Of a DNA stretch of 30,584 nucleotides, positions 13,252 to 17,256 are shown in pieces; within the stretch, counting starts at the first letter, position 1, and each line of letters begins with the position of its first letter. The notes under the pieces are model-generated. The model saw nothing but the letters and a program-made list of their open reading frames with translations, made no database searches and had not been told where the DNA came from. The translations under genes and the position numbers were made by a program. Source of the stretch: Escherichia phage ESSI2_ev015; sequence record NC_049395.1, one strand, 5' to 3'.

Positions 13252-13754
13252 TCGCCATCCCCCACCGGCGCACCGGCCTCATCCACGCTGTAAATACTGG
13301 CGGTCAGTGCCGTCCAGATTTCAGGCTCAACCAGTGACCAGCGCTCACCCCGCCACGGAATAGCCCCGTTTTCGTCCTGCCTGATCACCAGTTCTTCCAC
13401 CATCGGAACAGTCAGCACCACTGTGGCCACTTCCTCATCCTCCACCGACACATCCCAGTCCGGTTCGGATTCACTCAGCCCCACTTCATCCAGTAGTTCC
13501 CTGTCAGCATCATCCAGCCACGCCGCCAGTAAGGACATAAGCAACTGCGGCGGGCACAGGCGATACGGGAAACGCTCCCAGCTCAGAACCGCGTCATATC
13601 GGATCACCGCCTGGCGATATTGTCCCAGCCCGTAATCTTTCGCCGCAGGAATGAACTTCATCTCATCCAGTACACTGTCAAATGACTGCATCGCGCGGGG
13701 CGGGACGTTCTCTTTAAAAAATGCGGTCAGGCTCTGGATCTGTGTCTGGCTCAT
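13248..13754 (-). CDS. Putative tail completion / head-tail joining protein (gpR-like)
   Basis: 168 aa, acidic; ATGA overlap with L stop; position between L and the S-like gene. Confidence 0.35.
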   Translation of the reverse strand: MSQTQIQSLTAFFKENVPPRAMQSFDSVLDEMKFIPAAKDYGLGQYRQAVIRYDAVLSWERFPYRLCPPQLLMSLLAAWLDDADRELLDEVGLSESEPDWDVSVEDEEVATVVLTVPMVEELVIRQDENGAIPWRGERWSLVEPEIWTALTASIYSVDEAGAPVGDGE

Positions 13755-14254
13755 ACTTTTTTCACCGTTGCCCGTTTCAGCCCTTTCATACGGCGGATCA
13801 CCACCGATGCTTCAGCCAGTAACCCCGCACGGGTTTCCATGCTTTCCTGTCCCGGATGGGTATCGCGCCGCCCGATGGTGGCGAACTCCCCCAGCAGATC
13901 CGCTTTCGCCCTGGCAAAAACGGCCTTCATGTACTGGGCGCACAGGCTGTTCAGTCCGCCCATTTTTACGCCCGGTACCTCTGCCGCCAGCGTGTGGCCT
14001 TTCGCTATCCAACTGGCCTCCACGTTTTCCAGCTCCGCATTCACCTCCGCCACCGCTGCAAGCAACGCCTGGCTGATGGTGTCAGCGTCAATATCTGGCG
14101 GTAGTGACCGCTGTGCCTGAAAATCCTTCAGATTCAGGTCTGGCCAGAATCCGTTATTGGTCAGCGGTTCATCCTGATAATCCAGCGGCTTTCCGCTAAA
14201 CATAAATCCCCCGAAAAAGGCGGACTGGCCGGTTTCCACGGCGCAGTTACACAC
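13751..14254 (-). CDS. L: Head completion/stabilization protein (gpL-like)
   Basis: Follows M as in P2. Track start is GTG (14254); an ATG with GGGGGA Shine-Dalgarno lies at ~14203 (MFSGKPL...), so the start is uncertain. Confidence 0.5.
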   Translation of the reverse strand: MCNCAVETGQSAFFGGFMFSGKPLDYQDEPLTNNGFWPDLNLKDFQAQRSLPPDIDADTISQALLAAVAEVNAELENVEASWIAKGHTLAAEVPGVKMGGLNSLCAQYMKAVFARAKADLLGEFATIGRRDTHPGQESMETRAGLLAEASVVIRRMKGLKRATVKKV

Positions 14255-14299
14255 AATGTGTTCTGCCCTCCACCGCGTCCGCCTGGCTTGCGGTAGTCT

Positions 14300-14497
14300 T
14301 TAAAGCTGAACTGGGGTCAGTTCACCCTCATCAAACCAGGCATCTACAGCCCGGCCATCAGCAGCCAGATAGTGGATCAGGTATTGATTGGTGCAGTTGG
14401 TATACTCTGCACGGGCTTTCACATGCCCTTCTTCACCACTGATAGTAACTGCCACTACCTGCCCCAATTCATGTTTGAATTTGATACGTGTTGCCAT
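14300..14497 (-). CDS. Small hypothetical protein (65 aa) inserted between M and L
   Basis: ATG 2 nt after the M stop, GGAG Shine-Dalgarno inside the end of M; sequence MATRIKFKHELGQVVAVTISGEEGHVKARAEY...AWFDEGELTPVQL. No P2 counterpart at this position as I recall the P2 map. Confidence 0.5.
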   Translation of the reverse strand: MATRIKFKHELGQVVAVTISGEEGHVKARAEYTNCTNQYLIHYLAADGRAVDAWFDEGELTPVQL

Positions 14498-14499
14498 TT

Positions 14500-15204
14500 T
14501 TAAACTCCGTTTTCGAGGCGTCGAATACGGGCGGCAATCGTCTGCCGTGTAGTCTTTACGCCAATTTTTAAGTAGTGCTTTTCTGCGATGGCCAGCAGTT
14601 GATCGGCCTTTTTCAGTGTTTCAATATCATCCACGCCCGCCGCCGTTTTCTGACCATCGTCATTGCGTAGTAACTCCAGACCGGCAAACTTGAACCATTT
14701 GGCCGTCACTTGCTCATGCAGTCGCCAGGTGTTTGCCACCCGCTCAAACGTGCGGGTGAAATAAGGCTCCACACTTTCCCCGCGCCCTGCGGTTTCCTGC
14801 GCCCATGCCAGCATCGTATCCGCCACGAAAGTGGGAAAATTGCTGCGTAACCGATCCGGGGTTGCCTGCTGCTGGCTGATAGCAATGTCAGCCCAGTCCA
14901 GCGCCTTATCCAGATCGCCCACGTCAAACAGCCAGATAACACACCAGGCGAAAACCGGATTTGCATACACCAGGCCACTCTCCAGATAGGCTTCCACAGT
15001 GGGAACCCAGCGCGGCAACAGCACATCGCGTTTATACTCGACGCGATCGGCGATGGTAGGCAGACTTCGAACGTGTTCCACATCCGTTTCCAGCGCCCTG
15101 ATCAGCAGGTGCATACTTTCCGTGGTTTCCAGTGCCTGGCTGCGCTTCAGCTTTTGTTCCATTGCAATACGCTGGCTGTGACGCTGCGCGGGGGAAAGTG
15201 CCAT
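14500..15204 (-). CDS. M: Terminase small (endonuclease) subunit, gpM-like
   Basis: 234 aa directly downstream of the capsid gene in the P2 order O-N-M-L; ATG confirmed. Confidence 0.7.
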   Translation of the reverse strand: MALSPAQRHSQRIAMEQKLKRSQALETTESMHLLIRALETDVEHVRSLPTIADRVEYKRDVLLPRWVPTVEAYLESGLVYANPVFAWCVIWLFDVGDLDKALDWADIAISQQQATPDRLRSNFPTFVADTMLAWAQETAGRGESVEPYFTRTFERVANTWRLHEQVTAKWFKFAGLELLRNDDGQKTAAGVDDIETLKKADQLLAIAEKHYLKIGVKTTRQTIAARIRRLENGV

Positions 15205-17094: not shown

Positions 17095-17256
17095 ATCCCC
17101 CCTGATTTATTCACTGACCCTGCGAACTCAATTATTGCCAAATAAAACTGCCGCTGCATTACGCTTTATTCTGAACAGTTCGGTTATAACGCTTTACCGA
17201 ACAGAGACGAATTAACACCACCGTTTTTTCATTACAGCCACGGCATAATTATCCGC
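17095..17256. promoter_or_regulatory. Divergent late promoter region (P-Q rightward, O-N-M-L leftward) with dyad element
   Basis: 162-bp intergenic region between divergent operons; imperfect dyad cagTTCGG-N13-CCGAAcag at 17176-17204, roughly 50-60 bp upstream of the P start. Confidence 0.4.

Follow-up and report, generated by a model that had tools for sequence, protein, structure and literature searches.

What is a small gene doing between two head genes that P2-like phages normally keep side by side, how does it come and go, and what might its product do there? The question arises from Escherichia phage ESSI2_ev015 (NC_049395.1), of which a stretch of 30,584 nucleotides (nt), called the window here, was analysed. 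In its head operon an open reading frame (ORF) of 65 amino acids (aa), ORF65 (14497..14300, minus strand; product MATRIKFKHELGQVVAVTISGEEGHVKARAEYTNCTNQYLIHYLAADGRAVDAWFDEGELTPVQL), separates M, encoding the small terminase subunit, from L, encoding the head completion protein. ORF65 is very likely a real accessory cassette gene. The whole of the evidence is best accounted for by an exchangeable accessory cassette at the M-L junction, which probably encodes a late cytoplasmic protein-binding modulator.

The M-L junction and its alleles

The junction was surveyed in the 80 IMG/VR loci that best match a gpL profile, 78 of which contain both M and L. The slot between the two genes is empty in 69 of these, eight carry an ORF65-family gene (L063, L082, L088, L105 and L125-L128) and one (L050) has an unrelated 82-aa ORF. 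Emptiness also prevails among close relatives: among 19 loci with a gpL 94-99% identical to that of the window, 17 have nothing in the slot, most of them with exactly 45 nt from the M stop to the L start. M runs straight into L as well in P2, where the gap is 99 nt and non-coding, and in Cronobacter phage ESSI-2 (96 nt, no coding-strand ORF), in agreement with what a preliminary description of the locus had assumed. That description saw in ORF65 an insert in a conserved operon, and this is borne out: alignment of the M-L junction across relatives gave no universal ortholog, phage ESSI2_ev129, like L050, has an unrelated ORF in this place, the base composition differs from that of the flanks and homologs occupy other positions in unrelated phages. 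ORF65 thus lacks the conserved position in all relatives that would mark an essential P2-type head or neck gene.

The DNA alignment A3 defines a single pair of boundaries common to the empty allele, the ORF65 allele and a third, His-rich allele. On the left, the shared sequence ends at ...CGTAT(C/T)CGA (Ala-Arg-Ile-Arg of M); on the right, the boundary falls at TAAAGACTACC and sequence is shared again from TAAAGACTACCGCAAGCC on. Between these points 218 nt (14303-14520) stand in place of 15 nt, a net gain of 203 nt, and the M stop codon of the empty phages takes the position of the ORF65 stop codon in the window. The exchange also rewrites the end of M, which reads RLENGV* in the window against KLTQE* in empty phages, the former containing the GGAG of the ORF65 Shine-Dalgarno (SD) sequence. 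The features concerned are as follows.

14500..15204, minus strand: gpM, small terminase subunit (PF05944, E 8e-39), upstream flank; its 3′ end is the proposed left-hand homology arm
14505..14508, minus strand: Shine-Dalgarno GGAG of ORF65, 7 nt 5′ of the ATG, inside Gly-Val, the final two sense codons of M
14303..14520, minus strand: variable cassette by comparison with ORF-less relatives (alignment A3), made of the alternative M tail, the 2-nt spacer and the ORF body
14300..14497, minus strand: 65-aa accessory ORF (‘L33’-like; PHROG 8618/1935 family), predicted five-stranded SH3-like β-barrel of 7.3 kDa, isoelectric point (pI) 5.4
14255..14299, minus strand: conserved 45-nt spacer 5′ of L, the proposed right-hand homology arm, from the alignment with relatives
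13751..14254, minus strand: gpL, head completion protein or head-tail adaptor (Ad1; PF05926, E 7e-39), downstream flank

The M stop TAA (14502-14500) is separated by a spacer of two nucleotides, AA (14499-14498), from the ORF65 ATG (14497-14495), and from the ORF65 stop TAA (14302-14300) there are 45 nt to the GTG start of L at 14254. The SD, the 2-nt spacing and the 45-nt gap given in the preliminary description are all correct by sequence, so that its observation of the ORF is confirmed in every detail. The start of L is itself ambiguous within 14203-14254 (minus strand). The GTG at 14254, adopted in the GenBank record of Escherichia phage ESSI2_ev040 and supported by ORF logic, gives a protein of 167 aa; the ATG equivalent at 14203, where PGAP begins L in related prophages, gives 150 aa, and the gap would then be 96 nt. 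Third-position variation among relatives favours the GTG, and we retained the 45-nt gap because this start matches the N33/P38/D39 register of P2 gpL.

How would such a cassette move? Relatives without an ORF, with ORF65 and with the His-rich ORF all have the 45-nt spacer before L, at the same position and with a near-identical sequence. In most of the 16 phages that carry an ORF65 homolog in the slot, the ORF starts within a few nucleotides of the M stop, and a GGAGTT-stop-ATG motif is common to the window and ev239-type phages. Alignment A3 disclosed no direct repeats at the cassette boundaries beyond TAAA at both stops. Site-specific insertion is disfavoured by this lack of repeats and by the M tail, which is not the same in all alleles; this difference makes homologous exchange through the arms on either side the better fit. 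The 3′ end of M and the 45-nt leader of L could serve as arms, by which recombination among related phages would swap the cassette in and out of the M-L junction of ESSI-2/ev040-type P2-like phages. The incoming cassette would bring along a replacement for the last codons of M and thereby supply the ribosome-binding site of ORF65. By these comparisons ORF65 appears to be a dispensable cassette at a fixed swap site, one with constant boundaries and at least two unrelated alleles; the ribosome-binding site travels inside the tail of the preceding gene. Conserved as they are, the structural operons of P2-like phages still take tiny passenger genes.

The alternative allele is an unrelated ORF of 78-82 aa that consists almost wholly of His-rich repeats (MKESHLQGSHTHTVGAHSHSLGGAHTHTVGAHSHSLGG...), found in the following places.

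L002:2102-2338, minus strand: His-rich ORF, gp20 of phage ESSI2_ev129
L050:2705-2953, strand not given: His-rich ORF in an IMG/VR locus
L131:1217-1453, strand not given: His-rich ORF of E. coli EH09-18-41, the closest complete E. coli prophage

In Pfam it matches PF03335 (‘Phage tail fibre repeat’), and annotations call it ‘tail fiber protein’ or ‘phage tail protein’. The ‘tail fiber protein’ label derives solely from the repeat-level PF03335 match and should be read as such; a free-standing mini-protein of fibre-type His repeats inside a head operon is odd.

Two further loci deserve mention. In a prophage of Citrobacter sp. FP75 (L023:4669-4911, plus strand), an 80-aa strongly hydrophobic ORF, apparently encoding a multi-pass membrane protein, comes right after M and is followed by an ORF65 homolog; as this slot holds two ORFs, the site can accumulate more than one cassette. 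The ORF65 homolog at L105:2743-2995 (IMG/VR uncultivated virus genome 2627853744_000001) has an in-frame TAG after codon 8 (MEFKYGLG*), so that no more than a TTG-initiated remnant of 55 aa is still open. It is probably a decaying copy, which fits dispensability.

The surroundings are those of a P2-type head block on the minus strand, with O (scaffold), N (capsid, PF05125), M and L, then R, an S-like gene and a DUF2586 sheath gene. Two opposite-strand ORFs at ORF65, of 43 and 54 aa, lack comparable support. The first 25 kb of the window are 98.7% identical, over 99% of the length, to ESSI2_ev040 (Peduoviridae, Quadragintavirus); a literature search gave no paper on this phage. There the counterpart of ORF65, HYP20_gp20, bears the GenBank product name ‘L33’, taken from ORF L33 of the Stx2e phage phiP27. 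As the label is a phiP27 ORF name, its reading as ribosomal protein L33 was rejected, and annotators should not take it as such.

Coding signal, family and horizontal history

Is ORF65 a gene at all? The 16 homologs from the same slot were compared pairwise by the Nei-Gojobori method (87 pairs). The ratio of nonsynonymous to synonymous substitution (dN/dS) had a median of 0.14 and went no higher than 0.44, synonymous sites being close to saturation; such values argue for purifying selection on ORF65. The protein also belongs over its full length to PHROG 8618 (E 3.3e-37; residues 5-64 on profile positions 1-60 of 61), with further matches to PHROGs 1935 (2.8e-20) and 16275 (2.2e-7); in none of the three is there a member of known function. 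Close homologs number 53 in a collection of 5.8 billion proteins, all hypothetical and devoid of Pfam domains. In alignment A1 of the family, 11 residues are invariant. The core residues F7, S20, E22, G24, R29, Y39, Y43, G48 and W54 are all present in ORF65, each of them at least 90% conserved both in an alignment of 145 sequences (A4) and in a domain alignment of 202 sequences.

An exhaustive profile search extended this group to 1150 clusters (50% identity) at E ≤1e-3, 351 of them at E ≤1e-10. Most are stand-alone proteins of 57-150 aa. Here a large family of 60-aa phage barrels stands without Pfam entry or known function. For ORF65 itself, Pfam gave only DUF4223 (E 0.01, under its cut-off), NCBIfam a single chance match to a sulfotransferase (E 0.02) and the PADLOC models none; nor did the region match Rfam. 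Searches of PDB sequences with the A1 and A4 profiles returned best E values of 0.013 and 0.43, short or insignificant. No recurrent partner gene or fused domain emerged, Pfam on the fused or long members giving single cases of Lcl_C, Caudo_TAP and Tudor-knot. No paper on the family, or on phage proteins of the YccV-like type, came up in literature searches. ORF65 was already known, being recorded in GenBank as a hypothetical protein and falling within existing PHROGs; what is new here is the exact anatomy of the cassette, the alternative M-L alleles, the size of the family and the predicted HspQ-like fold discussed below.

Several traits point to a foreign origin of ORF65. Its GC content is 0.485 and its GC content at third codon positions (GC3) 0.439, against GC3 values of 0.575-0.657 in N, M, L and R. 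Its identity is moreover decoupled from that of the flanks: in L063, M is 90% and L 95% identical, with 73% for the ORF core, and in L082/L088 the flanks reach 83-85% (M) and 83-84% (L) but the ORF 90%. At ≥80% nucleotide identity ORF65 is absent from 5426 complete E. coli genomes, 19 of which have a gpL at least 95% identical. Matches at 75-78% in E. coli genomes come from prophages of Evevirus type, in which the same slot has a homolog of 63 aa, and 16 further E. coli matches lie on plasmids, of about 48 kb for those listed. On pECO-b75, the one plasmid inspected, there are phage lysis genes, and the version of the protein encoded there has 136 aa.

The gene takes other positions as well, in phiP27, OS31, Bcep176, Bordetella and Yersinia phages, Morganella prophages and E. 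coli phage-plasmids. Among GTDB representative genomes, 34 loci contain the family and only six of them are P2-like M-L slots. In the others, as in phiP27, OS31 and the Morganella prophage, the gene typically follows the lysis cassette and precedes the genes for an HNH endonuclease and for the small and large terminase subunits (terS, terL). In three Pseudovibrio loci its neighbours match RecT and ExoVIII PHROGs, and in Bcep176 and the Bordetella phage it lies among small early-region genes. Distant members reach Alpha-, Beta- and Gammaproteobacteria and a few other metagenome-assembled genomes. The phiP27 L33 protein is 61% identical to ORF65 over 54 residues; it differs in its length of 115 aa, its N-terminal extension and its place between lysis genes and HNH/terS rather than in a P2-type head operon.

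Longer versions of the domain also occur, of 237 aa in the related Yersinia phage vB_YpM_41 (L005:3162-3875) and of 136 aa in pECO-b75 (L130:3915-4325), both encoded just upstream of ParB/Srx-like genes; the Yersinia form has a weak N-terminal match to Caudo_TAP (tail-fibre assembly). A 742-aa frame of Morganella morganii MMsCG (L026:2901-5129), without Pfam match, ends with the last 40 residues of the ORF65 domain; it may have arisen by fusion, by a frameshift in a copy or through faulty assembly. Four proteins of 974-2643 aa (P0063, P0066, P0100 and P0113) match only profile positions ~20-45, 9-13 times each, through a Y-x-x-H-Y-x-A-A-D-G-R hairpin. This looks like a repeated β-hairpin similar to the β3-β4 hairpin of the barrel; they were treated as non-homologous and set aside.

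Predicted barrel and candidate functions

AlphaFold2, run on alignment A1, returned a model with a predicted local distance difference test (pLDDT) of 85.9 and a predicted template modelling score (pTM) of 0.68. Its five strands (residues 14-17, 23-30, 38-44, 50-56 and 60-62) form a predicted small SH3-like barrel. The family is acidic like ORF65 itself, with a median pI of 4.96 and 94% of members below 7, which argues for protein binding over DNA binding.

By two methods the best structural match to the model is the HspQ/YccV-like domain (PF08755; PDB 5ycq), a superposable SH3-like barrel. Comparison of the A1 profile with single HspQ or YodC sequences was uninformative, and deeper profiles were then compared. 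With hhalign, the 202-sequence family alignment matched a shallow HspQ profile (number of effective sequences, Neff, 1.9) with a local probability of 74% (P 2.8e-5, 59 columns); the probability fell to 46% in global mode and to 0.1% for a reversed control. Membership in PF08755 is not supported, with no match of ORF65 at E ≤0.1 and none among 145 diverse family members at E ≤0.01, by the same Pfam library that recognises E. coli HspQ at 1.2e-20 and YodC at 1.6e-7. On account of these scores, and as PF08755 matches neither ORF65 nor the 145 members, we treat the YccV-like relationship as plausible and remote, not as membership. Like ORF65, HspQ is a small acidic SH3-like barrel, and the strand order is the same in the full-length profile-profile alignment. 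ORF65 lacks the HspQ β2-β3 insertion, visible as a gap of ~15 residues in the hhalign alignment, and the C-terminal extension of ~30 residues past the barrel. It is also phage-borne and sporadic, whereas HspQ is a core heat-shock gene.

The loose resemblance to DUF2158 put forward in the preliminary description did not survive. DUF2158/YodC (PF09926) is likewise small (~60 aa) and of broadly SH3-like fold, and a DUF2158 phage protein appeared at rank 32 of a BFVD fold search with a template modelling (TM) score of 0.69, having only the generic SH3-like fold class in common. PF09926 matched neither ORF65 nor any of the 145 members, and hhalign against a 121-sequence YodC profile gave 1.5% over 21 columns; a DUF2158/YodC identity was rejected.

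What, then, might the barrel do? We give slightly better than even weight to a non-structural binder or modulator. The 7.3-kDa acidic five-stranded SH3-like barrel would not be needed for building the virion and would act as a free protein-binding module, neither part of the virion nor a DNA binder. Most likely, this module would stay in the cytoplasm and modulate a host or phage protein late in infection. A more specific form of this idea takes its lead from the structural match, the best analogy at hand and no more than that. YccV-like barrels dock on AAA+ proteases and retune them, as do HspQ on Lon and ClpS, PDIP38 on CLPX and ClpF on ClpS1 (PMC7647994, PMC6719616). The ORF65 family could be a minimal phage-borne YccV/HspQ barrel, one that retunes late proteolysis by docking on an AAA+ protease of the host or on its adaptor (Lon, ClpS, ClpX). 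We regard this docking model as a long shot, and the narrower claim that the ORF65 product is specifically a protease modulator as equally speculative. If the HspQ-like resemblance did reflect function, these proteins would be phage tools for manipulating host proteolysis; as protease modulators they would make up a widespread class (~1150 clusters) of stand-alone proteins in temperate phages of Proteobacteria, and late-operon cassettes of this sort in P2-like phages would have, at M-L, a micro-hotspot that had gone undescribed.

Small phage ORFs of sporadic distribution in many cases encode counter-defence or exclusion effectors, and ORF65 could be a small late protein of this kind, neutralising a host defence or blocking competing phages. 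Such a role would suit its patchiness among near-identical phages and its horizontal history, as well as the alternative alleles that share one hot spot and the wide range of unrelated temperate phages in which the family is found, and small acidic barrels are typical shapes of binders and inhibitors. We nevertheless hold it to be unlikely. No PADLOC model matches, PHROGs and BFVD contain no homolog annotated as anti-defence, and expression from a late operon would be late against early-acting defences. Expression from the prophage is also unlikely, as no promoter was found, and this too counts against a defence-related role. Finally, the known P2 anti-phage hot spots lie elsewhere, in the cos-proximal gpA-Q region and in Z/fun, and the M-L site is not among the P2-like hot spots discussed (Rousset et al. 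2022, PMC9122126).

The place of ORF65 directly downstream of terS (M), to which it seems coupled in P2-like phages, brings to mind an accessory packaging factor, a barrel that aids the terminase in cos recognition, terS oligomerisation or terminase-prohead docking. Outside P2 phages, too, HNH endonuclease, terS and terL are the commonest downstream neighbours, with spanin and endolysin upstream. Passenger genes are well known to settle at the permissive lysis-terminase junction, so that position alone is weak evidence for such a role. Near-identical phages with the same M and L do without ORF65, the family is acidic, other members stand beside RecT/ExoVIII or among early small genes, and Pfam/PHROG searches found no link to any terminase-associated family. 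A function in packaging is therefore rather improbable.

Still more doubtful is a minor virion or assembly protein, be it a head-decoration protein, a connector accessory or an assembly chaperone, stabilising but non-essential. The location inside the head/neck block between terS and the Ad1 adaptor would agree with it, as would the one distant member fused to a tail-fibre-assembly-like (Caudo_TAP) N-terminus and the tail-fibre repeats of the alternative allele. Against these stand the many relatives, the majority, that share the capsid, adaptor and tail genes and have no ORF65, the presence of the family in siphovirus-type and other prophages outside structural modules, and the lack of any structural-protein homolog by sequence or fold.

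That ORF65, short and without Pfam or NCBIfam family, is a non-coding spacer open by chance is effectively refuted by the low dN/dS at saturated synonymous divergence, the ~1150 homologous clusters, the confident fold prediction, the conserved SD, the start tight against M and the negative Rfam result.

Late expression and comparison with morons

A consensus scan of the minus strand found neither a sigma-70-like promoter nor an intrinsic terminator flanking ORF65, although atypical signals could escape such a scan. With no consensus promoter or terminator of its own, ORF65 probably rides the late operon. In the P2 annotation, O through S (O-N-M-L-...-S) form one late operon. The simplest model, given the 2-nt spacing between M and the ORF and an SD that lies within M, is transcription as part of the late operon, with translation coupled to that of M. 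We thus infer a late, M-coupled expression: the late head promoter would most likely drive ORF65 along with O-N-M-L, and ribosomes that have just read M would go on to translate it. The expression ‘late at high level’ put forward in the preliminary description would likewise follow from the paradigm of the P2 O operon.

The same description called the insert moron-like. Morons in the sense of Hendrix and Juhala are extra genes in a phage genome with their own promoter and terminator. The comparison stands as regards presence or absence at a precise junction and deviant composition, and fails as regards the missing signals: since no sigma-70-like promoter or intrinsic terminator flanks it, ORF65 is not a classical moron. 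Like the classical morons of lambdoid and HK97-type phages and the variable loci of P2-like phages (old/tin region, Z/fun), it is an extra gene in some close relatives only, and it shares with them the deviant base composition and the recurrent junction. It differs from them as an apparently coupled cistron within a late operon. Passenger genes at junctions in phage late operons are well known, and ORF65 is one more such ordinary, moron-like passenger, not a novel kind of system. The preliminary interpretation is, overall, partly supported.

A last observation concerns the promoter region of the late genes. Between the large terminase subunit gene P (17257, plus strand) and the scaffold gene O (17094, minus strand), positions 17178-17202 of the window form a perfect inverted repeat, GTTCGGT-N11-ACCGAAC. 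This repeat in the divergent P/O late-promoter region departs from the activator site of P2, TGT-N12-ACA, but is a candidate for the site that the late activator of this lineage binds.
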